Origin: Candidatus Eiseniibacteriota bacterium | GTDB taxonomy: Bacteria; Eisenbacteria; RBG-16-71-46; CAZAMP01 | Direction: 5' to 3' | Assembly (NCBI GenBank): GCA_965224245.1 | Contig: OZ245046.1 | Coordinates: forward strand, 1,728,001 to 1,792,000 | Length of the DNA: 64,000 nt | Shown here: in pieces, positions 20,551-52,350 of the stretch | Layout of the letters: every line of letters starts with the position of its first letter | Position numbering within the stretch: position 1 is the stretch's first letter | The notes under the pieces: generated by a model | Database searches by the model: none | Seen by the model: only the letters and a program-made list of their open reading frames with translations | What the model was told of the DNA's origin: nothing | Made by a program: the position numbers and the translations under genes

Positions 20551-20740
20551 GATCCGGGCGTCCTTTGCTGGTGGGCGAGCAGTGAGGGACGCGATAATCT
20601 AGCACCATGCAACGGCTTCCGCCAACGTGAGATCGGCTCCGACCGCTGCGGGCGTCGGTGCTGGTGCTCGCCGGTCCACAGCCGCTACAGTCCCCACCTG
20701 GCTCCGGGCACCTCTCCGAACCCAGCAAGGACATCCGACC

Positions 20741-25052: not shown

Positions 25053-25129
25053 TGGCACCCCCGGCCCGACTCGAACGGGCGACACGCGGTTTAGGAAACC
25101 GCTGCTCTATCCACCTGAGCTACGGGGGC
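25053..25129 (-). tRNA. tRNA-Arg(CCT)
   Basis: Reverse complement GCCCCCGTAGCTCAGGTGGATAGAGCAGCGGTTT-CCT-AAACCGCGTGTCGCCCGTTCGAGTCGGGCCGGGGGTGCCA; 77 nt, cloverleaf, encoded CCA. Confidence 0.97.
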
Positions 25130-29196: not shown

Positions 29197-29400
29197 TGAG
29201 TGCGTCAGTGCTCCTCGCAAAGGAACATCTGTACCTTCCATGGAACTCCACGACCCTCGAGGAGGACAGGATGCCGCGCAAGGAGGACTTCCCGGTGATT
29301 CAAGCACTTCGACGACGCGGGGTCTACCTGGTGGACATCGCGGTCGATCCCGGCGTGAGCAAGAACACGATTTGGCGAGGTCCACGTCGTGGGGCGCCTG
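29197..29400 (+). mobile_element. IS21-family remnant (possible left end + IstA N-terminal HTH fragment)
   Basis: GGAGG RBS, ATG 29271 MPRKEDFPVIQALRRRGVYLVDIAVDPGVSKNTIWR, typical of an IstA N-terminus; truncated. Confidence 0.65.
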
Positions 29401-29640
29401 AAAGACGCCGGGATCGATCTCTCGGTCGGGAGCAAAGGCGACAGTCACGACGACGCGCTGGCCGAGACGATCATCGGACTGTACGAGACGGAGCTGATCC
29501 GTCGGGAAGGCCCGTGGCGGAACCTCGAGGACGTCGAGCTCGCCACGCTAGAGTGGGTGTCCTGGTTCACCGGCAAGCGTCCTTGGCAACTCCTCCCCTT
29601 CCCCTGTCCAGAGGCGGCTCCACGGGAGCCGGAGGAAAAC
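29395..29640 (+). mobile_element. IS3-family transposase (OrfB) C-terminal remnant
   Basis: RLKDAGIDLSVGSKGDSHDDALAETIIGLYETELIRREGPWRNLEDVELATLEWVSWF matches the IS3/IS51-group integrase C-terminus (SVGS.GDSYDNALAE..GLYK.E). Confidence 0.85.
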
Positions 29641-29688: not shown

Positions 29689-32226
29689 ATGGATGCAGAC
29701 CGGTACAGTCGACTCAAGCGGATCTTCTTCGAGGCCAGTTCCAGGGAAGTTGACGAGCGCGAAGCGTTCATCGACGAGGCATGCCGCGACGATCCCGAGC
29801 TCCGGTCGCAGGTCCACGATCTGCTCCAGACCGCTGGCCCGCTGACGCCCCATCTTGCCCGCTCCGACCTGCCCTCCGTCGAAGCGATCGGCGCCGGTGA
29901 TCGGATCGGTCCATACAACCTGCTGGAGAAGATCGGCGAGGGAGGGATGGGCACGGTCTGGCGCGCCCGGCAGGAGACGCCCGTCCGCCGCGAGGTCGCC
30001 GTCAAGCTCCTGCGGGCCGGAATCGAGACCGCGGATGCGCTGGCTCGCTTCGAGGCTGAGCGGCAGGCACTGGCGCTCATGGATCACCCCTGCATCGCGA
30101 AGGTGTACGAGGCCGGCACGACGAAAGGGGGGCGTCCCTTCTTCGCGATGGAGTACATCCGCGGCGAGCCTATCACCGAGTACTGCGACCGCCGCCGTCT
30201 CACGCTCCGCGAGCGCCTCGCCCTGTTCCTCCGCACGTGCGACGGGGTACGACACGCTCACCAGAAGGCGATCATCCACCGCGACCTCAAGCCGTCCAAC
30301 ATCCTGGTGACCGTCCTCGATGACCTGGCGGTGCCCAAGATCATCGACTTCGGCGTGGCCAAGGCGATGGCCCACCGCCTCACGGACCGCACGATGGTCA
30401 CCTACCTGGGGCAGCTGATTGGAACGCCGGAGTACATGAGCCCCGAGCAGGCCGAGATGGGTGGGGCCGATGTCGACACGAGAACGGACGTCTACGCGCT
30501 CGGCGTGATTCTCTACGAGCTCCTCTCCGGATCCCTTCCGTTCGATTCGAAGACGCTCCGCGAGGGCGGGTTCGAAGGCGTCCGTCGCCTCATTCGCGAG
30601 GTGGATCCGCTTCGCCCGAGCGAACGGCTCGGTTCGATGGGCCAGCAGCAGACGGACCACGTCGCGGCCGCGCGCGCGACCGAGCCCGTCATGCTCCTGG
30701 GCGCTGTGCGCGGCGACCTGGACTGGATCGTGATGAAGGCGCTGGAGAAGGACCCCGTCCGACGGTACGAGTCACCGTCCCAGCTCGCGGCGGACATTCA
30801 GCGCCATCTCGAAGACGAGCCCGTCGTTGCGCGACCGCCCAGCACGGCCTACCGGATGAGCAAGTTCCTCCGCCGCCATCGCGTCACCGTTTCCGTGGCC
30901 GCGCTCGTCGTCGGGCTCCTCGTCGTCTTCGCGGTGACGATGGCGTTTCAGGCCGCGCGGATCGCGCGCGAACGCGATCGCGCGAACGTCCAGACCGCGG
31001 TCGCACGGGAGACCACGGACTTCCTGGTCGACCTCTTCCGGGTCGCGGATCCGGCGGAATCGCGCGGAGAAGAGGTGACGGCTCGGGAACTCCTGGACCG
31101 GGGCTCCGCGCGGCTGTACGACGAGATCCAGGATCCCGCGGTGCGCGCAGAGCTCACGGGAGAGATCGGGCTCATTTACCAGAATCTCGGGCACTACCCC
31201 GAGGCCGGCCGGCTGCTCGGCGACGCGGCCGCGCTCCACGCCGAGACGTTCGGCCCAGACGATCCCCGGACGCTGGCGGCGCTGGATGATCTGGCCGGCC
31301 TGGAGGACGACGCGGGACGGTTCGCGGTGGCCGAGTCTCTCTATCTGGCGGTGCTCGACGGTTGGCGGCGCATCGGGGGCGAGGAGGACGAGCGCTACCT
31401 CGACACACGCCACGGCCTCGCGCTGGTGCACAAGAGCCAGGACCGGATGGAGGAGGCCGAGGAGGGGTTCCAGAGCGTCCTCGAGACGCTGCGGCGTCTC
31501 GGACGCGAGGACGAGCCGGCGGCGCTCGCGGCGCTGGCGAACCTGGCCACCGTCCATCTGCGGACGGGGAAGCCCGGCGAAGCCGAGCCCCTGCTGAAAG
31601 AGGTTCTCGCGCGGCGACGCAGGCTGCTCGGAGACGATCACCCGAGCACTCTCGGGACGATGGCGCGCCTCGGCTCCCTCTACCGTGAGATAGGACGGCA
31701 TGACGAGGCGGTGGAGATCCTCCGAGAGACTGCGAACGCGCAGAGAAGGGTCCTGGGGACCAGGCATCCCGACTACTCGATCACGCTGGAGTACCTGGCG
31801 AACGTCCATGCCGCCCGCGAGAACTGGGAGGAGGCCGCCGGGGCGTACACCGCGATTCTCGAGCTTCGACGCGACGAGCTCGGACCGGAGCACCCCAACA
31901 CGCTGATCTCCATGCACAACCTGAGCTCCGCGCTCGCGATGACTGGCCGACGGGCGGAAGCGGAGTCGCTGGCCACCCTCACCTGGGAGACACGCCGGCG
32001 CGTCATCGGCGAGAGCCACGAACACACGCTGGGCACCCTGTACAGCCTGTCGGTCCTGGCGGCGATGCGCGAAGACCGGGAGGAAGCCGTCGAGTGGCTA
32101 GGCGAAGCCGTTCGTCTCGGATACGCCCGCCCGAGCATCCTGACCAACGAGGAGTTCAAGCGCTTCCGCGGCGACCCGGAGTTCGAGGCGCTGCGCGAGG
32201 AGGTGCGCAGGCGCCTCGAGGACTGA
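29689..32226 (+). CDS. Membrane Ser/Thr kinase with TPR repeats (ECF-associated type)
   Basis: Real start [62 protein letters not shown] repeats (LG..HP.TL). Confidence 0.92.
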   Translation: MDADRYSRLKRIFFEASSREVDEREAFIDEACRDDPELRSQVHDLLQTAGPLTPHLARSDLPSVEAIGAGDRIGPYNLLEKIGEGGMGTVWRARQETPVRREVAVKLLRAGIETADALARFEAERQALALMDHPCIAKVYEAGTTKGGRPFFAMEYIRGEPITEYCDRRRLTLRERLALFLRTCDGVRHAHQKAIIHRDLKPSNILVTVLDDLAVPKIIDFGVAKAMAHRLTDRTMVTYLGQLIGTPEYMSPEQAEMGGADVDTRTDVYALGVILYELLSGSLPFDSKTLREGGFEGVRRLIREVDPLRPSERLGSMGQQQTDHVAAARATEPVMLLGAVRGDLDWIVMKALEKDPVRRYESPSQLAADIQRHLEDEPVVARPPSTAYRMSKFLRRHRVTVSVAALVVGLLVVFAVTMAFQAARIARERDRANVQTAVARETTDFLVDLFRVADPAESRGEEVTARELLDRGSARLYDEIQDPAVRAELTGEIGLIYQNLGHYPEAGRLLGDAAALHAETFGPDDPRTLAALDDLAGLEDDAGRFAVAESLYLAVLDGWRRIGGEEDERYLDTRHGLALVHKSQDRMEEAEEGFQSVLETLRRLGREDEPAALAALANLATVHLRTGKPGEAEPLLKEVLARRRRLLGDDHPSTLGTMARLGSLYREIGRHDEAVEILRETANAQRRVLGTRHPDYSITLEYLANVHAARENWEEAAGAYTAILELRRDELGPEHPNTLISMHNLSSALAMTGRRAEAESLATLTWETRRRVIGESHEHTLGTLYSLSVLAAMREDREEAVEWLGEAVRLGYARPSILTNEEFKRFRGDPEFEALREEVRRRLED

Positions 32227-32263
32227 CGGAACCCGTCCGCTCTCGCCCGGAATCCCCACCGGG

Positions 32264-33928
32264 TTACGCCGCTCTCCTTCCCCGCTTCGCGTCAACCGGA
32301 CCCCGCTCCTCGAGGACCCGCGCCACCTCCCGGTGGCTCTCCCGCCTCGCGTCGTCGAGAGGAGTGCCTCCCCACCGGTCGCGAGCTCCCGGATCCACAC
32401 CGGCCGCCAGCAGATACTCGACCACGTGCACGTGCCCTTCGGATGCGGCCAGGTGAAGAGCCGTCCGGCCATCGTAGTCGCCCTCGCCGAGGGACACGCC
32501 ACGCGCCGCGAGCTGCTGGACGCCCCGCAGGTCTCCCCGGCTCGCCGCCCAGCACAGGTCGACGACGGCGCCGACCCGCCTCTCGTCGCGCCGCTGCCGG
32601 GGATCGATCTTGTCGTGCCGGCCACCCAGCAGGTTGTCGTAGTTGTGAAAGTTGAAGGTGCGGGTCAGCTCGCGGCAGAAAGCGATGCCACGCACGCTGT
32701 TCCCGTTCTCGTCCAGACGGGGCGACCAGACGCAGAGCCCCATCACGTTGGGGACCACCAGGAGGATTCCGCCCGACACGCCGCTCTTCGCTGGAAGCCC
32801 GACCGAGAACGCCCACTGCCCCGAGAAGTCGTACATGCCGCAGGAGTACATGAGCGACAGGACCTTCTGAACCGTGTCCGGCCTCAGCACCCGCTCACCC
32901 GTCACCGGACACACGCCGCCGCCGGCCAGCGTCCCGGCGACGATCGCGAGCGAGTCGGCGGTCATCTCGATCGAGCAGGACTGGAAGTAGAGCTCCAGTG
33001 TCTCGACTAGGTTCGTGCCCTCGGGGAACGCCCTGTTCTCTCGCATCGAGTACGCCAGCGCGAAGTTGCGGTCCGCTGTCTCGCGCTCCGAGAGGTAGGT
33101 GGAGGTGCTGAACCCCGGCTTCGTCCCTCCCGCCAGCCTTCTCCAGACGTCCATGATGTGCTCGAACCGGTCCGCCATCGGCTTCTTCCGTTGGACCAGT
33201 GAGGTCGACATGATGCCGCCCGCATTGATCAGCGGATTGTGAGGACGGCCGTCCTTCCCCAGCCAGAGCTCGTTGAACGCGCGTCCGCTGGGCTCGCAGC
33301 CCATGTGCCGGTGGACTTCCTCCTCCCCGTGCTCCTCCAGCGCGGCGACGTAGTTGATGGTCTTGCAGATCGACTGGATGCAGAAGTCCACGTTCGCGTC
33401 CCCGATGGAATGCCGTTGACCGTCCACCGTGCACACCGAGACCCCGTACCGATCCGGGTCCACCCGTTCGAGCTGCGGGATGTAGTTCGCCAGGCTTCCG
33501 CTGCGATTCTCCATCGTCCCGGCGTGGATCCGATCCAGCTCCGTCGAGAACGAGGCGAACTCCGGCAGAACCGTCTGCCCGGTCAGCACTCGCTCGATGA
33601 GAAGCGGATGACCGTTGGCGATCCGCTCGAACTGGTCGAACGAGATCCGCTCGCCGGGATCGAGCTCCGCCAGCAGCCGCGCGACCTCGGCCAGGCGCGG
33701 GTCGTCCATGCGGATTCCGGCCTCCCGCAGCACGCTGGGAAGCGCGTCGTGTGCGATCGTGTCCTCCCCGCCGATCCGAAGGGCGTCGAAGAGGGCCCGG
33801 GAGCGGGCGTCTTCGCCCGGGGCGCCGGAAACTCTCGTTCGCGCTCCGGCACCCGGGACGACGGGCGCGATTGCCGCGCCCGTCCGCCCGTTTCGGTCCC
33901 TTCGCGGGCTCTTGGTCTTCATCGCCAT
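32264..33928 (-). CDS. glsA: Glutaminase with N-terminal EF-hand-like domain and C-terminal ankyrin repeats (animal GLS-like)
   Basis: YIPQL, QSICK (SxxK), HNPLINAG, CGMYDFSG, GLPAKSGVSGG, NFHNYDNL; ANK DYDGRTALHLAASEGH, DRWGGTPLDDA. Start 33928 or 33922, overlapping the amt stop. Confidence 0.95.
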   Translation of the reverse strand: MAMKTKSPRRDRNGRTGAAIAPVVPGAGARTRVSGAPGEDARSRALFDALRIGGEDTIAHDALPSVLREAGIRMDDPRLAEVARLLAELDPGERISFDQFERIANGHPLLIERVLTGQTVLPEFASFSTELDRIHAGTMENRSGSLANYIPQLERVDPDRYGVSVCTVDGQRHSIGDANVDFCIQSICKTINYVAALEEHGEEEVHRHMGCEPSGRAFNELWLGKDGRPHNPLINAGGIMSTSLVQRKKPMADRFEHIMDVWRRLAGGTKPGFSTSTYLSERETADRNFALAYSMRENRAFPEGTNLVETLELYFQSCSIEMTADSLAIVAGTLAGGGVCPVTGERVLRPDTVQKVLSLMYSCGMYDFSGQWAFSVGLPAKSGVSGGILLVVPNVMGLCVWSPRLDENGNSVRGIAFCRELTRTFNFHNYDNLLGGRHDKIDPRQRRDERRVGAVVDLCWAASRGDLRGVQQLAARGVSLGEGDYDGRTALHLAASEGHVHVVEYLLAAGVDPGARDRWGGTPLDDARRESHREVARVLEERGPVDAKRGRRAA

Positions 33929-35208
33929 CACCTCCACGCCGTGTCGAGCTGCGCAGTCGAGGACTCGCCGCGGTTTGCCCGCGCGAAACGCTCGAGGCTG
34001 TACGCGAGCTCCGCATGCTCGCTCCAGTCGATCCCCTGCACCTCCGCCCTCTCCGAGGCTCGGAGCCCCACCAGGAACCTCAGGGCCAGAAGGATCGCGG
34101 CCGTGCCGACAGCGGACAGCGTCGCCGCCACGAGCACGCTCACGAGCTGGGCCACGAGCAGGCTGGCGTTTCCGGCCAGAAGGCCGTCGGCCCCGCCGGG
34201 GTTCACGGCCGTCGTCGCGAAGACGCCTGTCAGCAGCGCCCCGACGATTCCTCCGATACCGTGACACGCGAACACGTCCAGCGTGTCGTCCAGCCGGCTC
34301 GCCTGCAGCCGGGACATCACGAAGTAGCTCGCCATCGCGCCGAGTGCACCGATTGCCAGAGCGGCCATCGGAGTGACGAATCCCGCGGCCGGCGTCACCG
34401 CCACGAGCCCGACCACGGCGCCGATCGACGCACCTACCGCCGTCGGCTTTTCACGCCGCAGCGACTGCAGGGCGATCCAGGTCACGGCCGCCGCCGCCGC
34501 TGCGAGCATCGTGGTCACGGCCGCGAGCGCGGCCAGGCCGTCCGCCGCCAGGGCGGAGCCGGCGTTGAACCCGAACCAGCCGAACCACAGGAGAGAGGCT
34601 CCCAGCACGACCAGCGGGACGTTGTGCGGCCGACCCGGATCGTCGCCGGCTTGCCGACGCGGACCCAGGATGAACGCCGCCACCAGAGCGGCGACCCCCG
34701 CGCTGATGTGGACCACCGTTCCGCCGGCGAAGTCGATGGCTCCGAGAGCGCCGATCCAGCCCTCGGGTCCCCAGACCCAGTGACAGAGCGGCGCGTAGAC
34801 CACCAGGCTCCAGGCCATGATGAAGAGCGCGTACGTGCGGAACTTCATGCGGCCCACGATGGCGCCGGAAATGAGCGCCGGCGTGATGATCGCGAACATC
34901 ATCTGGAACATCATGAACACGAAGTGCGGGATGTTTCCCGCGACGTCCGGGTTCGGTGCGGACCCAACACCCTGGAGTCCGACCCACGAGAGTCCCCCGA
35001 TCCAGGCGTTGCCGGGCGCGAAGGCGAGCGAGTAGCCGATGATCGCCCACTGGACGGTCATCAGGCCCAGCGCGACGAAGCTCATCTTTATCGTGTTGAT
35101 CGCACTTCTTTCCCGGACGAGCCCACCGTAGAAGAAGGCCAGTCCAGGGGTCATCAGAAAGACCAGAACGGTCGCGATCAGTGTCCAGGCCGTGTCTCCG
35201 GAATTCAT
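33928..35208 (-). CDS. amt: Ammonium transporter (Amt family)
   Basis: DTAW, MTPGLAFFYGG, FQMMFAIIT, DFAGGTVVH, WFGWFGFNAGS, DDTLDVFACHG; both pore His residues present. Confidence 0.96.
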   Translation of the reverse strand: MNSGDTAWTLIATVLVFLMTPGLAFFYGGLVRERSAINTIKMSFVALGLMTVQWAIIGYSLAFAPGNAWIGGLSWVGLQGVGSAPNPDVAGNIPHFVFMMFQMMFAIITPALISGAIVGRMKFRTYALFIMAWSLVVYAPLCHWVWGPEGWIGALGAIDFAGGTVVHISAGVAALVAAFILGPRRQAGDDPGRPHNVPLVVLGASLLWFGWFGFNAGSALAADGLAALAAVTTMLAAAAAAVTWIALQSLRREKPTAVGASIGAVVGLVAVTPAAGFVTPMAALAIGALGAMASYFVMSRLQASRLDDTLDVFACHGIGGIVGALLTGVFATTAVNPGGADGLLAGNASLLVAQLVSVLVAATLSAVGTAAILLALRFLVGLRASERAEVQGIDWSEHAELAYSLERFARANRGESSTAQLDTAWR

Positions 35209-35282
35209 GTTCCCCTCCTCCTCATGAGACGGGTTGGACGTCGAACGCCGCGGGGATGGATTCCCCGCGGCGGCTGGCGTCG

Positions 35283-36374
35283 CTAGGCGACCTTGATCCG
35301 GACGGTCTCCTCCGGATCCGCGATGTCGCAGACGGTACGGACGAGCTCCCGGCAGACCACGTATGGATCACAGTTGGCACCCGGGCGGCGGTCCTCGAAG
35401 TAGCCCGAGCCGCGCTCCACGACTTGCCGCGGGATCCGGATCGACGCGCCGCGGTCGGCGACGCCGGAACGGAACTCCTCGATGCTGCAGGTCTCGTGCA
35501 GCCCGGTGAGTCGATCGGCCAGGCCGGCGCCGTAGTTGCTGACGTGACGGTCGTGCGCCACGATCAGCCGCTCGACAGCAGCGTGGATCGCGTCCAGTCC
35601 GGTGTTTGGTTCGCGCGTGGCGTTCGTCGAGAAGTTCGTGTGCGCACCGGCTCCGTTCCAGTCGCCCTTCACCGGCTTGGGGTCGAGGCGCGGGTAGATC
35701 CCGTGGTCCTCGCCGAGCCGATAGAGCAACCACCTGGCGACCCAGAGCTCGTCGCTGACACGTAGCGCGTTCCCGTCCTCGCCCTCGAAGCCCCGGTAGC
35801 CGATCTGGAACTCCCACTGGCCTGGCATCACTTCCGCGTTGACGCCGTAGATCATCAGACCGGCGTCGATGCACGCGCGAAGGTGGGCCTCGACCAGCGG
35901 ACGACCGTGGGCTTCCTCGCTACCGACGCCGCAGTAGTAGGGACCCTGCGGTCCGGGGTAGCCGTTCTCCGGCCATCCGACGGGACGGTCACCGACGTAG
36001 AGCGTGTACTCCTGCTCGAAGCCCACCGCCGGGGCCTCGTCGGCGCCGCCGGCATCCAGCACGTCGCGCAGAGTCGCCCGCGTGTTGGTCTCGTGTGGGT
36101 TGCCGTCCCCGTCCAGAACCTCACAGAGCACGAGGTAGTTGCCTTCCCCGCGGATCGGGTCGTTCCAGAATCCCACCGGCTGCAGAAGGCAGTCGGAGTC
36201 GTCGCCAGCCGCCTGGTTCGTCGACGAGCCGTCGAAGCTCCAGCCGGGGAAGTCCTCGAGGCGAACATCCTCGGGATTCGCAACCTGCACGATCCGCGTC
36301 TTCGAGCGGAGCTTCTGCGTGGGGCTCGTACCGTCGAGCCAGAGGTACTCGGCGGACTTGATGGGGCTCCTCAT
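35283..36374 (-). CDS. glnII: Glutamine synthetase type II
   Basis: AEYLWLDG, W.FDGSST.QA, GFEQEY, QGPYYCGVG, NAEVMPGQWEFQIG, PKPVKGDWNGAGAHTNFS, RLTGLHET, YFEDRRP..NCDPY; ~363 aa; AAGGAG RBS. Confidence 0.95.
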   Translation of the reverse strand: MRSPIKSAEYLWLDGTSPTQKLRSKTRIVQVANPEDVRLEDFPGWSFDGSSTNQAAGDDSDCLLQPVGFWNDPIRGEGNYLVLCEVLDGDGNPHETNTRATLRDVLDAGGADEAPAVGFEQEYTLYVGDRPVGWPENGYPGPQGPYYCGVGSEEAHGRPLVEAHLRACIDAGLMIYGVNAEVMPGQWEFQIGYRGFEGEDGNALRVSDELWVARWLLYRLGEDHGIYPRLDPKPVKGDWNGAGAHTNFSTNATREPNTGLDAIHAAVERLIVAHDRHVSNYGAGLADRLTGLHETCSIEEFRSGVADRGASIRIPRQVVERGSGYFEDRRPGANCDPYVVCRELVRTVCDIADPEETVRIKVA

Positions 36375-36559
36375 CGATCTCTCCTTTTTGTAGTCCGGAG
36401 GCGGGCCCGTCCCGCCATTGCCGGTTCGAGGGGGGAAACACGATCCGCGTCGAAGGAGTGCAACGCGACCCAAGCGTGTCCTGAACCCGTTGGCATAACG
36501 CCGCTTACGAGTAGCCGGTTGGGTACGCAGGGGTGCCGGACCCGTGCTACCCTGGCCAC

Positions 36560-37144
36560 ATGACGGAAGAGAGATCAGCCACAGTGACGCTCCTGCTCCA
36601 GCGGATGGAGCAGGGCGACCCGGGGGCTCTCGACGAGCTGCTCCCGGTGGTCTACGACGAGCTCCGCGTGATCGCCCGCCGCTTCTTCCGGGTCCAGCGG
36701 TCCAATCACACGCTTCAGCCCACCGCGCTGGTGCACGAGGCCTACATCAAGGTGCTCGGTGACCGGGCCGCCCGACCGAAAGGCTGGAACGACCGTGCGC
36801 ACTTCCTGAGTGTCGCCGCCATCGCGATGCGACAGATTCTCGTGAACCACGCCCGTGACAAGGCCGCGCTCCGGCGTGGCGGACCCGACGCACATCAGGT
36901 CACGCTCACAGGCATCGCCGACTTCGACGACTCGGACGCGCTGGACGTGCTCACCGTCCACGACGCACTCGAGGCCCTCCACCGGCTCGACCCGAGGCAG
37001 GCCCGGATCGCCGAGCTCCGGTTCTTCGGCTCCCTCACTCTCGACGAGACGGCCGAGGTGATCGGGATTTCTCGCCGAACCGTCGCGCTGGACTGGAAGA
37101 TGGCCAAGCGTTGGCTGGCGAGGAGACTCGACCCGGAAGGCTAA
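36560..37144 (+). CDS. ECF sigma factor, ECF43/TIGR02999-like (kinase-associated class)
   Basis: VT.LL, LLPVVYDELR, HTLQPTALVHEAY, AHF...A.AMRQILV.HAR, ELRFFG, S.RTV..DW..AK.WL. TGcTACCCT lies 6 nt before the ATG (possibly leaderless). Confidence 0.92.
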   Translation: MTEERSATVTLLLQRMEQGDPGALDELLPVVYDELRVIARRFFRVQRSNHTLQPTALVHEAYIKVLGDRAARPKGWNDRAHFLSVAAIAMRQILVNHARDKAALRRGGPDAHQVTLTGIADFDDSDALDVLTVHDALEALHRLDPRQARIAELRFFGSLTLDETAEVIGISRRTVALDWKMAKRWLARRLDPEG

Positions 37145-37223
37145 CGAGCATCGCGTCTGCACTCCGTGCGCCTGGATCGTGTTCCCCCGACCATAGACGG
37201 CAGTCGCTGCCCAGGGGGAACAC

Positions 37224-37838
37224 ATGGAAGCCGGACATCTGCTCGAGGGACTGATCATCGGATTCTCGATCGCGGCCCCCATGGGCCCGATCGGCTTGCT
37301 GTGCATCCGACGCACGCTGAGCAATGGCCGGGTGGCGGGCATGGCCTCGGGCCTGGGGGCGGCATCAGCCGACGCCGTCTTCGGCTGTATCGCGGGCTTC
37401 GGCTTGACCGTGGTCTCGGCCGTGCTGATCGATCAGCAGGCCTGGCTGAAGTGCGCAGGGGGATCGTACCTGTGCTACCTGGGTCTCAGGACGTTCCGCG
37501 CCCGACCCACCACCCGATCGGCGGCGGTGCGGGGACGCGGACTCCCGGGAGCGTTTGCCTCCACTTTTCTCCTCACCCTGACGAACCCGGTCACGATCCT
37601 GTCGTTCCTCGGGATCTTCTCCGCACTCGCCCCGGGAACGACCGGCGACGCTCGAGGATCGGCCGCGGTTCTCGTGGCTGGGGTGTTCATCGGCTCCGCG
37701 CTCTGGTGGCTCCTCCTGAGCGTCTCGGTGGGTAGCCTCCGCCCACGGCTCGACGACTCGCGCATGACGTGGATCAACCGTTTCTCGGGACTGGTGCTCG
37801 GAGGGTTCGGCCTGACGGCGATCGCGAGCCTGGTGTGA
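37224..37838 (+). CDS. LysE-family amino-acid exporter
   Basis: GFSIAAPMGPIGLLCIRRTL, GLGAASAD, FLLTLTNP.TI, GVFIGSALWW. Confidence 0.92.
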   Translation: MEAGHLLEGLIIGFSIAAPMGPIGLLCIRRTLSNGRVAGMASGLGAASADAVFGCIAGFGLTVVSAVLIDQQAWLKCAGGSYLCYLGLRTFRARPTTRSAAVRGRGLPGAFASTFLLTLTNPVTILSFLGIFSALAPGTTGDARGSAAVLVAGVFIGSALWWLLLSVSVGSLRPRLDDSRMTWINRFSGLVLGGFGLTAIASLV

Positions 37839-40164: not shown

Positions 40165-40749
40165 TTGCCCACCGAGCCGGAGAGCCGTCGGGTCGAAGCG
40201 ACCGTTCTTCTCGAACGAATCCGATCCGGAGATCGCGATGCCGCGGACGAGCTTCTACCGCTGGTCTACGACGAGCTGCGCCGGATCGCCGCCAGCTACT
40301 TCCGAGCTCAGCCGCACTATCACACGCTGCAGCCGACCGCGCTCGTGCATGAGGCGTTCCTGAAGCTCGTGAACGTCCCGGGCTCCGACTGGGAGAGCGT
40401 CAATCACTTCAAGGCCGTGGCCGCGCGGGCCATGCGGCAGATCCTCACCGATCACGCTCGCGCCAAGGCCACCGCCAAACGGGGTGGTGACGTCGAGCAC
40501 GTTCCCGTGGACGGTATCGATACGCCGGCAGGCACGAACACGCTGGACCTGGTCACCCTCGATCGCGCACTGACGACGCTGGGTGAGCTCGATCCACGTC
40601 AGCTCCGGATCATCGAGCTATGGTTCTTCGCCGGCCTCACGATGGACGAGGTGGCGAAGCTGATCGACGTCTCCGAGCGTACGGTCCGGCGAGAGTGGCG
40701 ACACGCCCGCGCATGGCTCAACAACCAGCTCTCCGTGAACTCTCTATGA
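40165..40749 (+). CDS. ECF sigma factor, ECF43/TIGR02999-like
   Basis: AAGGAG + TTG start; LLPLVYDELRRIA, HTLQPTALVHEAF, SERTVRREW..ARAWL; ATGA-coupled to a kinase. Confidence 0.92.
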   Translation: MPTEPESRRVEATVLLERIRSGDRDAADELLPLVYDELRRIAASYFRAQPHYHTLQPTALVHEAFLKLVNVPGSDWESVNHFKAVAARAMRQILTDHARAKATAKRGGDVEHVPVDGIDTPAGTNTLDLVTLDRALTTLGELDPRQLRIIELWFFAGLTMDEVAKLIDVSERTVRREWRHARAWLNNQLSVNSL

Positions 40750-43409
40750 ACGAACGGGAGCGTTTCCAGCGGCTCAAGCGCATCTTCGACGAGGCCTGCG
40801 AGCTGCCGGCTCACGATCGCGCCGCCTACCTCGACAGCGCCTGCGGCGGTGACGTCGAGCTCCGGGAAGAGGTGGCCGCGCTGCTCGCCGCCGAAGGGGA
40901 CCCGGACGCCGCGCTGGGCGTTTCCCATCGGGGCGCCGGTCCCGAGATCCTCGCCGAGGAGCTGTCCTCCACCGCGTTCGACGCCGAGGCCCTCCCCGCC
41001 CGGATCGGTGACCACGAGATCCTGCGCGAGATCGGTCGCGGCGGCATGGGGGTGGTGTACGAGGCGCAGCAGGCGCATCCGCGGCGTCGTGTGGCTTTGA
41101 AGGTCATCCGTGGCACGTACGTGACCCCGGAGCTCGTGAAGCGCTTCCGTCACGAAGCACAGCTCCTCGGCCAGCTCGATCACTCGGGCATCGCCCACGT
41201 CTACGAAGCCGGCTCGGCAATGGTCGGAGACACACGACGGCCATACCTCGTGATGGAGCTCGTCGACGGACAGCCCCTCGACGAGCACGTGCGTGCCGAG
41301 AGAGTCGACGTCCGCCAGATCCTCGAGCTCATGGCGATGGTGTGTGACGCCGTTCAGCACGCGCACCAGCGGGGCATCATTCATCGTGACCTCAAGCCCC
41401 CCAACGTCCTCGTCAAGCGCAACCCCGACCTGCGGGGAGACGACCCATCCGTGATCGACGCACCCGTACAGCCGAAGGTGCTCGACTTCGGCGTGGCCCG
41501 GGCGACCGATGCCGATCTCGCGGTGACCACGGTCAACACCCGCGCCGGCCAGGTCGTGGGCACGCTGTCGTACATGAGCCCCGAGCAGGTGGCCGGGCAG
41601 ACCGACGTCGACACGCGCTGTGACGTGTACGCGCTGGGCGTCATCCTGTACGAGCTGCTCGCCGGTGAGCGACCCTTCGACCTCGCCCGAACGCCGATGG
41701 CGGAGGCGGCTCGTGTCATCGCCGAGGAGGATCCCACCAGCCTGGGCACCCGGGTTCCCGATCTCGATCACGACGTGGTCACGATCGTGTCGAAGGCGAT
41801 GGACAAGGATCGGGAGCGCCGGTACCGATCCGCCGCCGAGCTCGCGGACGATCTTCGCCGGTATCTGCGCAGCGAGCCCATCTCCGCACGTCCCCCCAGC
41901 GCGACCTATCTGTTGCGGCGCTTCGCCCGTCGGAACCGCGCCATCGTGGTCGGGACCCTGGCCACGATCACGGTCCTCGTGGCCGGTCTGATCGCATCGA
42001 CCGCGGGCTTCATCTCCGCCCGCACGGAGCGCGATGCCAAGACGTCCGCCCTGGAGACCTCCGACGCCGTGATCGACTTCCTGAGCGACATGCTCACGGC
42101 GGCTCGGCCGGAGGCTCGAGGTCGCGACGTCACCGTGGTGGACCTCCTGGGACAGGCATCGGGTGACCTCGGCGATCGCTTCGAGAACCGTCCGGGCGTG
42201 GCGGGGAAGCTACGCAGCGTCATCGGCGGGACCTATGTGGCGCTCGGCGAATACCAGGCCGCGGACAGCCATGCCGTCGCCGCGGTCGAGCTCCTGCGGG
42301 TGTCGTCACCCGGGCCCGACCCCGAGCTGGCCGACGCCCTCGTCGTGCTCGGCACGGTGAAGTACTTCCTCGGCGATCCCGAGGCCGCCCTGGCAGCGGC
42401 CACCGAAGCCGCGGAGATGTTCGGCGCGCTCGATCCACCGGATGAGGAGAGGGCGCTGAACGCGGAGGCCGATGCCGCGTTCATGACCATGGCCCTGGGA
42501 CGACTGGACGAGGCGCGCGAACGCTTCGTGAAGGTGTCGTCCGCCGCCCGGCGCCTCGGCGGCCCGGACGGCGAGGCATCGATGACCATCGATGGCAACC
42601 TCGCCATGCTCGACGGCCGCCGCCGGGACTACGCGGCGTCGGAGGAGCGCTTCCTCGACGTGATCGAGCGGTCGCGGCGCGTACGCGGCGCGGACCACCC
42701 GTCGACCACGCAGCTCGTGGCGAACTACGCGTCGGTTCTCGTCAACGAGGGACGGCCGGCTGAAGCCATTCCCTACCTCAGGGAAACCCTGGCCGCCCAG
42801 GAGAAAGCCCTGGGCGAGGGTCACTCGAAGACGCTCATCACCCTGGGCAATCTCGCGCAGGCCCTGACGAGTACCGGATCGTTCGAGGAGGCGGAAGCGC
42901 TGGCACGGGAAGACCTGCGGCGAGCCATCCAGGCGTACGGAGATCGATCGCGCAGCGTGTTCTTTGCGCGGCACTCGCTGGCCTGGATCGTGGGGCAGTC
43001 CGGGGACACGGAGCGGTCGATCCCGATCTTCGCGGAGAACCTCGCCCTCTCACGGGATCTGCTCACGTTCGACGACAACGGCGCACGTAGCGCCTGGACG
43101 GCCCTGATCGGAGCGCTCCTGGAGGCGGGCGCCTATGCGGCCTGCTTGGATACGACCCGCTCGTTCATCGGACTCGCCGCACGGAACGGGGTCACTGATG
43201 GCAGACACCTCATGCTCGCGCACAGGACCGCGGCACAGGCGTTGGTGGCCCTGAAGCGGTACGACGACGCCGAACGCGAGCTCGACCTGGCCCTGGCCGG
43301 CGCCGACTCCACCGATCGCCACGAGCTGGCCGAGGCATTCGTCGAGCTCTACGAGGCGACTGGACGGGAAGACGCCGCTCGCGAGTGGCGGCGTCACCTG
43401 GACCCCTGA
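40746..43409 (+). CDS. Membrane Ser/Thr kinase with TPR repeats, cognate of upstream ECF
   Basis: MNERERFQRLKRIFDEAC; GRGGMGVVY, HRDLKPPN, LDFGVAR, YMSPEQ; TM; TPR. Confidence 0.93.
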   Translation: MNERERFQRLKRIFDEACELPAHDRAAYLDSACGGDVELREEVAALLAAEGDPDAALGVSHRGAGPEILAEELSSTAFDAEALPARIGDHEILREIGRGGMGVVYEAQQAHPRRRVALKVIRGTYVTPELVKRFRHEAQLLGQLDHSGIAHVYEAGSAMVGDTRRPYLVMELVDGQPLDEHVRAERVDVRQILELMAMVCDAVQHAHQRGIIHRDLKPPNVLVKRNPDLRGDDPSVIDAPVQPKVLDFGVARATDADLAVTTVNTRAGQVVGTLSYMSPEQVAGQTDVDTRCDVYALGVILYELLAGERPFDLARTPMAEAARVIAEEDPTSLGTRVPDLDHDVVTIVSKAMDKDRERRYRSAAELADDLRRYLRSEPISARPPSATYLLRRFARRNRAIVVGTLATITVLVAGLIASTAGFISARTERDAKTSALETSDAVIDFLSDMLTAARPEARGRDVTVVDLLGQASGDLGDRFENRPGVAGKLRSVIGGTYVALGEYQAADSHAVAAVELLRVSSPGPDPELADALVVLGTVKYFLGDPEAALAAATEAAEMFGALDPPDEERALNAEADAAFMTMALGRLDEARERFVKVSSAARRLGGPDGEASMTIDGNLAMLDGRRRDYAASEERFLDVIERSRRVRGADHPSTTQLVANYASVLVNEGRPAEAIPYLRETLAAQEKALGEGHSKTLITLGNLAQALTSTGSFEEAEALAREDLRRAIQAYGDRSRSVFFARHSLAWIVGQSGDTERSIPIFAENLALSRDLLTFDDNGARSAWTALIGALLEAGAYAACLDTTRSFIGLAARNGVTDGRHLMLAHRTAAQALVALKRYDDAERELDLALAGADSTDRHELAEAFVELYEATGREDAAREWRRHLDP

Positions 43410-43790
43410 GCCGTACTGCAAGCCGCAGCAGAGCGTTAGGACCCCATCGCGCCAGCCGGCGTCCCTCCGGGGCCGCCCGTCCCGAGTCCGCCGCGGCTTC
43501 CGAATCCGGATCCGAGTCGAGCTGGCCGGCGCCAATCGCTCGCTCCGGAGAAGAAAGTTCGCCTCACCGTGTCCTAGTCGGCACGTCGATCCCGTGGATC
43601 GGGTGAGTGCGCGCGGCGCCACGGTGTCGCGCGAGGACACGAGATCCCATGGATTCATCACCCTCGCTCATGCCTCGCCGGTCGTCTGTGCTCGGCCCCA
43701 ATCACAGGGCACGTGGGGTCAGTCACGGCCCGGAGACACCTGAAACGGCGGACGGTCCCCTCCGGCATCGCCCAAATACGGAGAAGACGA

Positions 43791-46700
43791 ATGAGACACA
43801 CTCGACGCACGTTCTCGGCTCTGCTCCTCGCTCACCTCGCGCTGCCCTGCATCGCGGGAGCCGGAAGCTTCACCGAGGACTTCACGACCACGACCTACCG
43901 GGACCCGGTCGCCACGACCGCGAACTGGGACACCACCGACGAGGAGCTCAGGCTCTTCCCCTTCAGCCTGAGCCTGACCGGCAGCGCGGACACGCCGGGC
44001 GTCGCCAACGATCAGTTCGTCTCGGGAGACCACGCGTACATCGCCGACGGCACCTCGGGTCTCCAGGTGATCGACATCTCCGATCCGGCCGCGCCGGTCC
44101 TCGTCGGCTCGTTCGATACCCCGGGAGACGCCGCCGGCATCTATGTCGACGGTGATCAGGCGTTCGTGGCGGACGGGCTCAGCGGTCTCCAGGTGATCGA
44201 CGTGAGTGACCCCACCTCCCCGGCCAGCCTCGGTAGCGCGAACACGCCGGGCTTCGCCTACAGCGTCTTCGTGAGCGGCGATCACGCCTATGTCGCGGAC
44301 AACACCGGCGGATTGCAGGTGGTGGACGTGAGCGATCCCGCGTCGCCGGCGATCGTGGGGTCGGTCGTTCCCTTCGGTGAAGCTCGGAAGGTGTTCGTCG
44401 ACGGGGACCACGCCTTCCTGGCCTACGACGCCGTGGGGCTCCGGGTGATCGACGTGTCCGAGCCGACCGCCCCGGCTCTCGCCGGCATCGTCGACACTCC
44501 CGGTCAAGCCCACAGCGTCGTGGTCGACGGCGATCATGCCTTCGTGGCCGACGGCGGCTCCGGCCTGCAGGTGATCGACGTCTCCGACCCCACCGCCCCT
44601 GCGATCGTCGGCACGGTCGACACGCCCGGGGTCGCCGAGGGCGTCTCGGTCTCAGGCAACCGTCTCTATCTGGCCGACCGCGCGGAGGGCGTCGTGATGA
44701 TCGACGTCACCGACCCCACCGCGCCGGTGATCCTGCAGACGATCGCGACGCCCGGCTTCGCCCGCGAGGTGATGGCCGACGGGGAGCACGCGTACGTGGC
44801 ACAGAACACGTCCGGTCTGGAGGTGATCCAGGTCGCCGCTCGCGTGGGCTCGCCGGCCCTGGCCGGTAGCGTCGCGACCTCGTCGTGCCATGCGGTGGCG
44901 GTCTCGGGCGATCATGCCATCGTGCGGGACCAGGGCGCCAACGGCCTTCACGTGATCGACATCAGCGATCCCGCGACTCCCACTCTCGTGGGGTTCTATG
45001 CCGGGGGGTTGAGCGATGGCGGTGGTGTCGCGGTCTCGGGCGACTACGTCTTCACGGCGGACTACGGGGCGGTCGGCCTTCACGTGGTCGACATCAGCGA
45101 TCCCACCAGCCCCACCCTCGCCGGATCCTATGGAGGCCTGTTCGAAGGTAGCAGCGTCACGGTCTCGGGCGCCCACGCCTTCGTGGCCGACGGCTCGGCC
45201 GGAATCAAGGTGATCGACATCAGCGATCCCACCAGCCCCACCCTCGTCGGCTCCCACGATACGCCCGGCTATGCGTCGAAAGTCGCGGTGGCGGGCGATT
45301 TCGCCCTCGTCGCGGACAACAGCTCCGGCCTCCGGGTTCTCGACATCAGCGATCCCACCAATCCCTCGCCCGCCGGCTCCTACAGCACGCCCAGCCCCAC
45401 CTATGGCGTCGCGGTGTCAGGGGATCTCGCCGTCGTTGCGATCGGGAACGCCGGCCTGCAGGTGATCGACATCAGCGATCCGACCAACCCCTCGTTCGTC
45501 GGCTCCTACAACACGCCCCACTTCGCCTACGGCGTCTCGCTGGCGGGCAATCTCGCCCTCGTGGCCGACGGCGGCTCGGGTCTGCAGGTGATGGACATCA
45601 CCGATCCCGCCAATCCCTCGCTCGTGGGTTCCTACGATACGCCCGGTCAGTCGCGTGACGTGGCGATCGCGGGCGACCACGCCTTCGTGAGCGATGGAAG
45701 CAGTCTTCAGGTGATCGCCGTGCTCCAGACCGAGGTGGACCCGGTTCGCAACGTCGGTCAGTCGCTCGCCGTCGATGGGGGGACCGAGATCATTCCGCGC
45801 GCCCGGGTCACGAGCACGGAGACCGCCGGGATCTCGTGGGAGCTGAGTGCGGATGCGGGCGCGAACTGGCAGACGCTCGACGCGGACGGCTCATGGGCGG
45901 GGCTGACTCCGGGTGAGGATCTTCTCTGGCGTACCACACATGCATGGGCCTCTCCCGGGGTGAATCCGGCGGTGTCGGACCTGACCATCGACTGGCTGAA
46001 CGAGTTCGCTCCGATCATGTCGATCACCGACATCCCCGATGATCAGGGCGGTCGGGTGTCGCTCACGTTCGACCGATCCGGCTACGACTTCCTCGACGAG
46101 ACGGTCCATCCCATCGTCGGGTACGCGATCTATCGACGTGTCGATGATCCGCCCCTCGCGCGGCAGGCGCTCGAGAGCGGAGTCGTCCCCGAGGCGGAGC
46201 CGGTCGATGGGCCACCGCTCGCCGCGTATGGACTCGAACACATCCGGGTCATCGGGGACCGCGTGTTCGTCGAGGGCGATCGCGCACGCCGGGGAAGCGG
46301 CTTTCCCCCCGGCGTCTGGGAGGGCGTGGGCTGGGTACTGCCGACTCAGAGCGACGCCTACGTGGCCAACGTCCACACGCTGTCGGACTCGACGGCCTCT
46401 GGCACGGCCTGGTCCGTGTACTTCACCGCGACCCACACGTCGACGCCGTCGATCTGGTTCGCGAGTGCGCCCGACAGCGGCTACTCCGTCGACAACATCC
46501 CGCCCAGCGTGCCGACGGGCCTCGCCCGGATGGGTGACGATCTCTCGTGGGACCCGGCTCCGGAGCCCGACTTCGAGTACCACACCGTCTACGGGTCCGA
46601 CGTCGCGGAGCTCGATCCGACGGCCACGCTCATCGGGTACACCGTCGATTCGACGTACGACGTGAGCAGCTCCCCCTTCGCCTACTACCACGTGACCACC

Positions 46701-47060
46701 TCGGACCGCGCCGGCAACGAGAGCGACGCCGCCAGCATCGAGGGTCCTCTGGTCTCGGTCACGCCCGGCGACGTTCCGCCGAGCGCGTTCGCGCTGCAAC
46801 CGGCCCATCCGAACCCGATGCGCTCGGGAACGACGCTGAGGTTCGATCTTCCGGAGCCGGGGTACGCCGCGCTGCAGATCGTCGACGTCGCGGGACGACG
46901 CGTGCGGACGCTCTCCGCCGGCCATCACCCGGCGGGTCGATACACGCTGTCCTGGGATGGACGCGACGACAGGAACGCGCCGGTGGTATCGGGTGTCTAC
47001 TTCGCGCGGCTGGAGGCGCCGTCGTCGAAGGCGGTGCAGCGGCTTCTCGTGATCCGGTAA
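43791..47060 (+). CDS. Secreted LVIVD-repeat beta-propeller protein with FlgD-like C-terminal domain
   Basis: Signal peptide; about 14 repeats DTPG.A..V.V.GD.A.VAD..SGLQVID.SDP; DIPDDQGG module; PNP..VDVAGRRVRTL..WDGRDD....SGVYFARL. Confidence 0.92.
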   Translation: MRHTRRTFSALLLAHLALPCIAGAGSFTEDFTTTTYRDPVATTANWDTTDEELRLFPFSLSLTGSADTPGVANDQFVSGDHAYIADGTSGLQVIDISDPAAPVLVGSFDTPGDAAGIYVDGDQAFVADGLSGLQVIDVSDPTSPASLGSANTPGFAYSVFVSGDHAYVADNTGGLQVVDVSDPASPAIVGSVVPFGEARKVFVDGDHAFLAYDAVGLRVIDVSEPTAPALAGIVDTPGQAHSVVVDGDHAFVADGGSGLQVIDVSDPTAPAIVGTVDTPGVAEGVSVSGNRLYLADRAEGVVMIDVTDPTAPVILQTIATPGFAREVMADGEHAYVAQNTSGLEVIQVAARVGSPALAGSVATSSCHAVAVSGDHAIVRDQGANGLHVIDISDPATPTLVGFYAGGLSDGGGVAVSGDYVFTADYGAVGLHVVDISDPTSPTLAGSYGGLFEGSSVTVSGAHAFVADGSAGIKVIDISDPTSPTLVGSHDTPGYASKVAVAGDFALVADNSSGLRVLDISDPTNPSPAGSYSTPSPTYGVAVSGDLAVVAIGNAGLQVIDISDPTNPSFVGSYNTPHFAYGVSLAGNLALVADGGSGLQVMDITDPANPSLVGSYDTPGQSRDVAIAGDHAFVSDGSSLQVIAVLQTEVDPVRNVGQSLAVDGGTEIIPRARVTSTETAGISWELSADAGANWQTLDADGSWAGLTPGEDLLWRTTHAWASPGVNPAVSDLTIDWLNEFAPIMSITDIPDDQGGRVSLTFDRSGYDFLDETVHPIVGYAIYRRVDDPPLARQALESGVVPEAEPVDGPPLAAYGLEHIRVIGDRVFVEGDRARRGSGFPPGVWEGVGWVLPTQSDAYVANVHTLSDSTASGTAWSVYFTATHTSTPSIWFASAPDSGYSVDNIPPSVPTGLARMGDDLSWDPAPEPDFEYHTVYGSDVAELDPTATLIGYTVDSTYDVSSSPFAYYHVTTSDRAGNESDAASIEGPLVSVTPGDVPPSAFALQPAHPNPMRSGTTLRFDLPEPGYAALQIVDVAGRRVRTLSAGHHPAGRYTLSWDGRDDRNAPVVSGVYFARLEAPSSKAVQRLLVIR

Positions 47061-51807: not shown

Positions 51808-52350
51808 ATGCCGTTCTATCTGGAAGAGACGGACATTCTCTCTCGCGTGAAGGGGCTGCGCTCGGTGCTGATCGTGCCGTGCCGTTTCTGCCCGGCCGCG
51901 AGCCTCGCCGTGAAGGAGGGAAAGCCCTACCTCGAGCCGTTCCGGCGGTTCCTGAGGACGGAGGCCTACGAGTCGTTCATCCGCGCTCTCCGGCATGAAC
52001 TCGAGGCACGGGGCATCCGGACGGCTGTCTTCGACAGCAAGCTGCCGCACCACTTCGTCACGTGCATGTGGACGTCCGGACGGCGCCGGCAGCTCGCGGA
52101 ACGGGCGGCGGCATTCGAGGGCGTGGTGGTCCTCGGATGCGAGGCCACCGCGGAGACGGTCCGCCTGGCGATCGGGTCCGCGGACTGCCAGGTGATCTCC
52201 GGCATGGAGATCCTCAGTGGAATCATGAACGTCCGCCCCGTCGTGCGCCTTCCCTTCACCATCTCGCTCGAGCTCCAGGGGGTCACGCCAGTGACGACGA
52301 CGGGCTCGGGGACCACGGTCGGTCCGCCCGGATTCCGGGCTGGGGATTGA
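51808..52350 (+). CDS. Hypothetical Cys-motif protein (MetV/MTHFR small-subunit-like fold possible)
   Basis: GGAGG RBS; VLIVPCRFCPAASLA, CMW, VVVLGCE. Confidence 0.65.
   Translation: MPFYLEETDILSRVKGLRSVLIVPCRFCPAASLAVKEGKPYLEPFRRFLRTEAYESFIRALRHELEARGIRTAVFDSKLPHHFVTCMWTSGRRRQLAERAAAFEGVVVLGCEATAETVRLAIGSADCQVISGMEILSGIMNVRPVVRLPFTISLELQGVTPVTTTGSGTTVGPPGFRAGD

Follow-up and report, generated by a model that had tools for sequence, protein, structure and literature searches.

Accounts of bacterial ammonium assimilation usually centre on PII proteins, which plug the ammonium channel AmtB and throttle type I glutamine synthetase (GSI) through adenylylation; the amtB-glnK operon, encoding the channel and its PII plug, is widespread in bacteria and archaea. 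Here we analyze a cluster of three genes in a 64 kb stretch of Candidatus Eiseniibacteriota DNA (contig OZ245046.1, positions 1,728,001 to 1,792,000; "the window" below), which encode a type II glutamine synthetase (GSII; gene glnII), an Amt-family ammonium channel (amt), and a kidney-type glutaminase (abbreviated gls in gene orders). As in amtB-glnK, the classical form of which occurs at one of the loci compared below (L072), amt appears translationally coupled to the gene of a cytoplasmic partner in a nitrogen-control unit. Unlike in amtB-glnK, no PII gene lies nearby, the partner is an enzyme of 554 amino acids (aa), and a glutamine synthetase (GS) belongs to the unit. Comparison with other species showed that the cluster is a conserved arrangement beyond chance neighbourhood.

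Glutaminase genes are known from other small nitrogen or amino-acid operons. The glsA-glnT genes of Bacillus subtilis and glsA1/ybaS-ybaT of Escherichia coli pair glutaminases made of the catalytic domain only with amino-acid transporters; the window enzyme differs in bearing ankyrin repeats and in being encoded with a GS. GSII enzymes of Streptomyces, Rhizobium, and Frankia are of the same length class as the window protein and have the same motifs. We know of no link of glnII to glutaminase or amt genes in these organisms, and none was found in the literature, whereas the window glnII is clustered with both. The idea of simultaneous glutamine synthesis and breakdown as a regulated cycle also has precedents: in Rhizobium etli and Neurospora crassa such cycling has reportedly been inferred from physiology, with the genes unlinked, though no paper on the R. 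etli case was found in the searchable literature. Here, the opposing enzymes are encoded together with an ammonium channel.

The flanks of the cluster recall the ECF43 group of extracytoplasmic function (ECF) sigma factors, exemplified by EcfP/PknT of Vibrio parahaemolyticus and EcfK/PknS of Xanthomonas citri, in which a sigma factor with a threonine in region 2.2 is encoded near a Hanks-type membrane kinase. Reported targets of these pairs are polymyxin resistance or a type VI secretion system, and not nitrogen metabolism. In the window, sigma and kinase instead flank a metabolic operon.

The searchable literature yielded no description of a GS-Amt-glutaminase cluster when searched for the cluster, its futile cycle, and bacterial ankyrin glutaminases, which agrees with the first-pass annotation of this DNA, where the module was called undescribed. 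Each protein is a member of a known family; what appears unusual is that opposing enzymes are encoded together, probably under the control of a kinase-dependent ECF sigma factor.

Gene arrangement and protein families of the cluster

Window genes were called by third-position GC, and 50 of them were scanned against Pfam. The cluster consists of the following features.

35283..36374, minus strand: glnII, type II (eukaryote-type) glutamine synthetase, 363 aa; Gln-synt_N/C, GSII structure match; ATG 3' of AAGGAG
33928..35208, minus strand: amt, Amt-family ammonium channel, 426 aa; PF00909, TIGR00836
32264..33928, minus strand: kidney-type (GLS-like) glutaminase gene, 554 aa; EF-hand_14, Glutaminase, and Ank families (Pfam)
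33926..33930, minus strand: overlap of the amt stop (TGA) and the glutaminase start (ATG), read from the sequence
33563-33796 (aa 45-122): EF-hand-like domain of the glutaminase (EF-hand_14, PF17959)
32639-33499 (aa 144-430): catalytic domain of the glutaminase (Glutaminase, PF04960)
32306-32557 (aa 458-541): ankyrin repeats of the glutaminase (ANK)

Open reading frames (ORFs) and their translations place all three genes on the minus strand, co-oriented as first annotated. The stop/start overlap noted there is equally real: the TGA of amt (33930-33928) and the ATG of the glutaminase gene (33928-33926) have one base in common, which suggests translational coupling. A GGAGG lies 5 nt upstream of this ATG, and each of the three genes is preceded by a strong GGAG-type ribosome site. 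The spacer between glnII and amt measures 74 nt.

GlnII contains both Gln-synt_N and Gln-synt_C. It aligns end to end with its best solved relative, glutamine synthetase 4bax (E 6.5e-126), which we take to be GSII of Streptomyces coelicolor. Fifteen further solved chains, including animal, plant, and yeast enzymes (e.g., maize 2d3a), match at E<=1e-94, whereas the next-best chains, enzymes of GSI length, reach only 1e-7 or worse; the protein is hence a GSII by similarity. On the NCBIfam GlnII equivalog NF041605 it scores 463.5 bits over aa 7-350, just under the cutoff of 500, in which it differs from known bacterial GSII. To our knowledge, GSII is not subject to control by adenylylation.

Amt covers model positions 1-399 of 399 of Ammonium_transp (PF00909, E 1e-113) and scores 432.9 bits on TIGR00836, above the cutoff of 343.3; on the AmtB equivalog NF007947 it falls short (325 against 657). 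In an alignment of 12 cluster-linked Amts, W146, D159, H167, F214, S218, and H316 are invariant. By analogy with E. coli AmtB, we assume that these positions include the twin histidines, the Trp and Ser of the binding site, and the gate Phe. The conserved C-terminal region of the window Amt is followed by a 26-aa tail (C terminus at 33928-34005). Cluster-linked Amts (L001-L024) likewise keep the conserved region, and most add non-conserved tails of 10-40 residues; the GlnK-linked Amt of L072, the one control of this kind, stops right after it.

Residues 49-541 of the glutaminase align with human kidney-type glutaminase KGA (5uqe_A; 532 bits, E 1e-158), and the protein has the complete kidney-type build: an EF-hand-like domain, a serine-dependent catalytic domain, and C-terminal ankyrin repeats. 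Residues S186, K189, Y149, N235, E281, Y314, and Y366 correspond to human S286, K289, Y249, N335, E381, Y414, and Y466, to which we assign their presumed catalytic roles. All seven are invariant or nearly so in 25 bacterial homologs, with Ser186 and Lys189 invariant. The enzyme thus shares domain build and catalytic residues with mammalian KGA/GLS and GLS2, but differs from KGA/GLS2 in its altered activation loop, its lack of a targeting peptide, its predicted cytoplasmic location, and its place in an operon with GS and Amt. Relatives number in the thousands; all of the 120 best matches carry glutaminase and ankyrin domains, and their named sources are Planctomycetota, Myxococcota, Acidobacteriota, and Proteobacteria. 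According to a review, glutaminases acquired their ankyrin repeats at an early stage of evolution (PMC13142944, citing Pasquali et al. 2017).

No signal peptide was found in the window glutaminase, nor a hydrophobic signal at any of the N termini of 25 homologs (0/25). The enzyme is therefore predicted to be cytoplasmic, and synthetase and glutaminase would share one compartment and run an ATP-consuming cycle unless one of them is restrained. A periplasmic glutaminase feeding Amt was considered and ruled out: the 25 N termini have no hydrophobic stretch, and the top 15-residue hydropathy is below 1.0.

The first-pass annotation had stressed that neither glnK nor glnB adjoins the cluster, and ORF scans and tblastn bear this out for the window and for the surroundings of every linked cluster examined. 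No PII gene is present among the 50 Pfam-scanned predicted genes of the window. As a positive control we used L072, where an unrelated glnK-amt pair lies on the other strand from a catalytic-only glutaminase. A tblastn search of the window and 80 loci with the L072 PII protein (E<=1) returned its own gene only. Among 100 small ORFs near amt or glnII at 18 loci, the sole PII was that of L072; the other 17 loci have none within 2.5 kb of either gene. An Amt without glnK is not unusual by itself.

Recurrence of the cluster in other species

In the locus survey, 25 glutaminase homologs were aligned and one genome per species was scanned; at least 583 stretches matched; confirmation left 569, from which the 80 best were taken. 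Relatives of the window proteins in these loci (labelled L001 onward) were found by tblastn, their flanks were annotated with Pfam, and further queries were added. Three of the 80, cut off or without ankyrin repeats, were set aside. Linkage to GS and Amt differed sharply between the two kinds of glutaminase.

Ankyrin-bearing glutaminase loci of other species: n = 38; GS within 5 kb in 16, Amt within 5 kb in 13, GS and Amt in 13
Catalytic-domain-only glutaminase loci: n = 39; GS within 5 kb in 0, Amt within 5 kb in 1 (L072), GS and Amt in 0

Fisher tests that ignore kinship and ranking bias give p = 1.6e-6 for GS and 2.9e-5 for GS plus Amt. The first-pass annotation would have given up its module had the synteny been unique to this genome; with GS near 16 of 38 ankyrin-bearing glutaminases and near 0 of 39 catalytic-only ones, the module is clearly recurrent. 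Linked loci show more than 10 different arrangements, among them the following.

glnII-amt-gls: the window, L001 (Woeseiaceae), L007 and L012 (Gemmatimonadota), and L046
glnII-gls-amt: L020 (Oligoflexia) and L024 (Saprospiraceae)
gls-glnII-amt: L016 (Micromonospora)
amt-GSIII-gls: L002 (Myxococcales)
GSIII-gls-amt: L005 (Bacteroidota)
GSI-gls-amt: L006 (Pilimelia)
GS and gls only, no Amt: L010, L028, and L033

At L003, glnII lies on the opposite strand, and L008 (Kitasatospora) and L013 have looser arrangements. Labels of the carriers comprise Gemmatimonadota, Woeseiaceae, Myxococcota, Actinomycetota, Bacteroidota, Oligoflexia, Rickettsiales, and other Pseudomonadota. The GS slot is filled by GSII in 13 loci, by GSIII in L002 and L005, and by GSI in L006, so it is the function and not one gene lineage that is conserved; the Amt slot of L046 holds a member of a divergent Amt subfamily. 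Packing is tight in the linked loci, with overlaps or gaps from a few to a few dozen bases, and the junction between the glutaminase gene and its partner is an overlap or a gap of at most ~17 nt in L001, L003, L005, L006, L007, L010, L024, and L046.

Quick trees with Shimodaira-Hasegawa-like approximate likelihood ratio (SH-aLRT) support, which carry no bootstrap values, recovered the window, L001, L007, and L012 as a group for Amt (99) and, together with the unlinked L009, for glutaminase (96-97). In the GSII tree these four fall inside a 7-row group (92). L008 and L016 form a pair in each of the three trees. The Woeseiaceae locus shares the cluster with Gemmatimonadota across a phylum boundary, along with the sigma, kinase, and gene X described below. 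The module thus appears, from these groupings, to be laterally mobile and inherited as a unit. The deep backbone of two glutaminase trees was unstable; because four eukaryotic rows moved between them, we draw no conclusion on eukaryotic origin.

These data bear on two alternative explanations. That the three genes are neighbours by chance, or through an annotation artefact, can be regarded as most improbable: linkage occurs at 16 of 38 loci in other species and at none of the 39 controls, it persists although gene order is shuffled and the type of GS replaced, and trees of the three proteins recover the same groups with good support.

Another possibility, which follows the suggestion of the first-pass annotation that the ANK/EF domains might replace PII control, is a physical complex in which the ankyrin or EF-hand-like domain of the glutaminase binds Amt, either at the cytoplasmic face or at the C-terminal tail. 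The glutaminase would then gate the channel, or the channel the glutaminase, with the enzyme sensing glutamine in place of GlnK. Ankyrin repeats are generally protein-binding modules, cluster-linked Amts mostly have extra C-terminal tails that the single GlnK-linked control from L072 does not, and amt and glutaminase genes overlap or abut in the window and in L001, L003, L006, L007, L024, and L046, as amtB and glnK usually do. Yet Amt is missing altogether from L010, L028, and L033, where GS and glutaminase are present; in several loci the glutaminase gene adjoins that of GS and not amt; and the tails are not conserved in sequence. The ankyrin and EF domains are, moreover, the standard build, as in human KGA, and occur equally at the 22 of 38 loci that are unlinked. 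In the mammalian enzymes, ankyrin repeats act inside the glutaminase tetramer, according to PMC10912226. We consider such docking very improbable.

Flanking signal genes and transcription signals

The cluster is bracketed by two genes that had been singled out as possible regulators, an orphan kinase and a divergent ECF43-like sigma factor. Both are present by Pfam, the kinase being preceded by a transposase remnant.

36560..37144, plus strand: ECF sigma factor of kinase-associated type, divergent from glnII; PF07638 E 5e-48, TIGR02999 191.5 bits
29689..32226, plus strand: Ser/Thr kinase with one membrane helix and C-terminal tetratricopeptide repeats (TPR); Pkinase, TPR_12/TPR_10; convergent with the glutaminase gene
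29395..29580, plus strand: C-terminal remnant of an IS3-family transposase; weak rve_3; 71% identity over 62 aa, E 8e-22

A PF07638 sigma gene lies immediately upstream of glnII and divergent from it in the three closest loci, L001, L007, and L012, as in the window, and a TPR Ser/Thr kinase lies downstream of the glutaminase gene in L001 and L007; tblastn detected no further copy of such a sigma or kinase in L001, L007, or L012. The window kinase is the reciprocal best match of the L001 kinase (533/509 bits, compared with 444 and 371 to its own paralogs). The three sigmas of L001, L007, and L012 are 60-64% identical among themselves. The proposal that sigma and kinase regulate the cluster has hence gained comparative support, from three loci for the sigma and two for the kinase.

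An alignment of 6 sigmas has an invariant Pro54 and Thr55 in region 2.2, Thr standing where ordinary sigma factors have acidic residues. This swap marks sigmas activated by kinase phosphorylation (PMC13147305, PMC7826278). With the Thr motif and a Hanks-type kinase in its neighbourhood, the window sigma resembles the ECF43 group of EcfP and EcfK. The arrangement differs from the known pairs: the sigma gene is divergent upstream of the operon, and the kinase gene is found beyond the three genes, at a distance of 4.3 kb in the window and downstream of the operon in L001 and L007. This bracket, shared by the window, L001, and L007, is atypical in that sigma and kinase do not form one operon.

Compared with L001 and L007, the window kinase is inverted and a gene that we call X is missing. 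Gene X encodes a conserved protein of ~150 aa (35-47% identity) and is found at L001:9663-10193 (+), L007:9437-9907 (+), L012:9542-10006 (+), and L003:3812-4270 (-), directly 3' of the glutaminase gene in the first three and 3' of glnII in L003. It matched no Pfam family at E<=1 and, in the Atlas, only unnamed clusters; its confidently predicted all-helical model (predicted local distance difference test score, pLDDT, 82) matched nothing in the PDB at E<=0.001. The IS3 remnant lies directly upstream of the kinase start, in frame with an upstream extension of the kinase ORF, and may mark a local rearrangement that inverted the kinase gene and removed gene X.

NarL-type two-component genes adjoin the ankyrin-glutaminase loci L003, L005, L010, L011, and L013 (Myxococcota and Bacteroidota). 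They encode HisKA_3 sensor kinases and LuxR/NarL-type regulators (e.g., L013:779-3278 and L005:3-1260), and the sensor kinase of L003 carries a PilJ/NarX-like sensor domain. To judge from gene neighbourhoods, different lineages evidently attached different dedicated signal systems to the module.

Such sensors bring up the roles that the first-pass annotation had considered, namely export, pH homeostasis, and storage, which we regard as speculation. Glutaminase might release ammonia that consumes protons, for pH or ion balance, or turn neutral glutamine into anionic glutamate as an osmolyte switch, with Amt moving ammonium out or in and GS reversing the reaction. Glutaminase-based acid resistance of E. 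coli offers a precedent, the trio could in principle run both ways with ammonium exchanged through Amt, and a membrane kinase with outward TPR, together with the sensor kinases, suggests an external signal and not internal nitrogen status. No glutamate/GABA (gamma-aminobutyric acid) antiporter, decarboxylase, or osmoprotectant gene recurs nearby, however; Amt proteins generally act in uptake, and no sequence feature points to export. Roles of this kind are therefore improbable in our estimate.

The following intergenic elements were found in and next to the cluster.

35237..35281, minus strand: strong hairpin in the glnII-amt spacer; minimum free energy -40.1 kcal/mol (z -2.59), equalled by 1 of 200 shuffles; no U tract
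36375..36559, no strand: sigma-glnII divergent intergenic region, the presumed promoter region

The spacer hairpin is possibly a partial terminator or an mRNA-stabilising element. In the same spacer, L001 has a textbook terminator (z -5.67, U-rich tail) and L012 a long stem (z -2.29); L007 has no such hairpin (z +0.85). We infer co-transcription of the three genes, with amt and the glutaminase gene as one unit; glnII is likely to be expressed at a higher level, with partial read-through into the other two.

A scan of 31900-37300 for sigma-70-like promoters returned 0 sites, and inspection upstream of glnII by eye, which carries no statistical weight, revealed no sigma-54 or NtcA-type site. In structure, the glnII leader is unremarkable (z +1.22). 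It contains a terminator-like hairpin with a U-rich tail at 36445-36468 (-), ~70-95 nt before the start, that matches no RNA family. At gathering level, Rfam matched only a tRNA-Arg (CCT; 25053-25129, minus strand) in the whole window and nothing in leader or spacers; in E-value mode, 35150-36600 gave no meaningful match. By eye, a short G-rich word recurs in the sigma-glnII region of L001, L007, and L012 and is not seen in the window. The unusually long sigma-glnII region of L001 (~470 nt) holds an Arg-rich ORF of ~43 aa with a good ribosome site (~5240-5370, plus strand). A search for the GlnR box in the actinobacterial loci L006, L008, L016, and L027 gave 0 matches, a weak negative since the search relied on an assumed consensus and a strict pattern.

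Elsewhere in the window, three large repeat proteins (arylsulfotransferase-like, FG-GAP, LVIVD; 12319-14133 (+), 14179-17775 (-), and 43713-47060 (+)) end in an FlgD Ig-like domain, which may serve all three as a C-terminal module for sorting or anchoring. Two classical overlapping sigma-kinase pairs are present (40165/40620 and 63968/63669), and the genes of these two classes are as follows.

17902-20550, 20627-23620, 29689-32226, 40620-43409, 52062-54836, 54876-57602, 59941-63669: kinases
36560, 38282, 40165, 50122 (weak match), 63624: PF07638 sigmas

A proposed glutamine/ammonium node with its own signal system

Our favoured reading, which we hold tentatively and at somewhat less than even confidence, is that GS, Amt, and cytoplasmic glutaminase form a self-contained, separately regulated glutamine/ammonium node with the glutaminase as a relief valve. 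Such a node would have its own signal system in place of PII: in the lineage of the window, a kinase-dependent ECF sigma factor and a membrane TPR Ser/Thr kinase; in Myxococcota and Bacteroidota, a NarL-type two-component system. Once the module is switched on, Amt would admit ammonium and GSII would fix it into glutamine at the expense of ATP, while the ankyrin and N-terminal domains of the glutaminase would keep the enzyme's activity low, as in KGA/GLS2 of mammals. Only at rising glutamine and falling glutamate would it hydrolyse glutamine to glutamate and ammonium. The opposing enzymes would then form a controlled substrate cycle that buffers the glutamine/glutamate ratio and free ammonium, for instance after an ammonium pulse, and that stands in for the plugging of AmtB by GlnK and the PII-driven adenylylation of GSI.

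The relief-valve model is proposed because GSII lacks adenylylation control, an Amt without GlnK would be missing the fast plug, and ankyrin repeats restrain the mammalian enzymes: those of KGA/GLS2 reduce activity by hindering movement of the activation loop (PMC10912226). Flux directions, relief-valve logic, and control by sigma and kinase are what we infer from the gene content and from comparison with these enzymes.

Several findings weigh against the node. Human activation-loop residues R317, K320, and E325, which are tied to phosphate- and filament-linked activation, are replaced by A217, E220, and K225 in the window glutaminase. Because the Lys320 position (in the stretch 33266-33292, aa 213-221) is Glu here and nearly invariantly so across the 25 bacterial homologs, mammalian-style phosphate activation cannot simply be assumed. 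PMC10912226 assigns a role in the mammalian activation loop to Arg317-Glu325; with Lys320, Arg317, and Glu325 all replaced, a different allosteric logic is suggested for bacterial ankyrin-type glutaminases. A PII gene may be present elsewhere in the genomes that carry the cluster. In L006, a Tyr is still present in a GSI motif resembling what we take to be the adenylylation site, which suggests that not every GS of the module is free of classical control.

On the side of regulation, the window sigma is 39-43% identical to those of L001, L007, and L012 but 50% identical to a paralog in the window; its position is conserved, while orthology is not established by these identities. The 64 kb also hold 7 Ser/Thr (Hanks-type) kinases and 5 PF07638 ECF sigmas, and because the window is so rich in signalling genes, a kinase or sigma beside any one gene is weak evidence alone. 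The hairpin 3' of glnII in the window, L001, and L012 may mean that glnII is transcribed largely apart from amt and the glutaminase gene.

As to the survey, the 80 loci come from the top of at least 569 hits sorted by similarity to the query; they are a biased sample, and related species are not independent. No GS or Amt lies near 22 of the 38 ankyrin-bearing glutaminases, and the enzyme therefore does not need these partners. Several of the unlinked loci are short contigs (e.g., L004, L011, and L019), so the linked fraction is a lower bound. In favour of the module, 89 flank ORFs of 21 unlinked ankyrin-bearing loci (L018, nearly a copy of L017, was excluded) contained no recurrent nitrogen gene that could be a competing neighbour.

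The main rival holds that three nitrogen-scavenging genes are simply co-regulated, with no cycle. Amt and GS together would scavenge and assimilate ammonium, the glutaminase would live off glutamine taken up from outside, the two enzymes would be active at different times, and nothing would be buffered. The genes would share a control region because each is useful in nitrogen scarcity or with glutamine as a nitrogen or carbon source. All three are ordinary functions of nitrogen metabolism, glutaminase genes of Bacillus and E. coli are grouped with transporter genes in operons that the substrate induces, a hairpin after glnII would permit different expression levels, and more than half of the ankyrin-type glutaminases compared (22/38) work without GS/Amt neighbours. 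But no glutamine or glutamate transporter recurs in the annotated flanks of the clusters, and catalytic-only glutaminases are never so linked (0/39). The packing of opposing cytoplasmic enzymes together, across phyla and with three types of GS, suggests instead that the pairing itself is selected. We hence judge mere co-regulation rather unlikely, if a serious contender.

A more far-reaching version of the node may also be envisaged as a PII-independent answer to ammonium shock. An external cue would activate the ECF sigma through the kinase and turn the entire cycle on, the ankyrin glutaminase would both sense glutamine directly and bind physically to Amt, and the animal set of ammonia-handling proteins, later divided among cells and compartments, would descend from the bacterial trio of GSII, kidney-type glutaminase, and Amt/Rh. 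Taken jointly, these propositions are a long shot.

If the pairing is functional, the node would represent a second, enzyme-based way of balancing glutamine, glutamate, and ammonium. It would provide a physiological setting for the bacterial relatives of human GLS/GLS2, enzymes whose ankyrin and N-terminal domains remain poorly understood, and would link a kinase-dependent ECF sigma factor to central metabolism. The comparative pattern turns these ideas into a hypothesis that can be tested in culturable carriers such as Micromonospora (L016), Kitasatospora (L008), and Pilimelia (L006).

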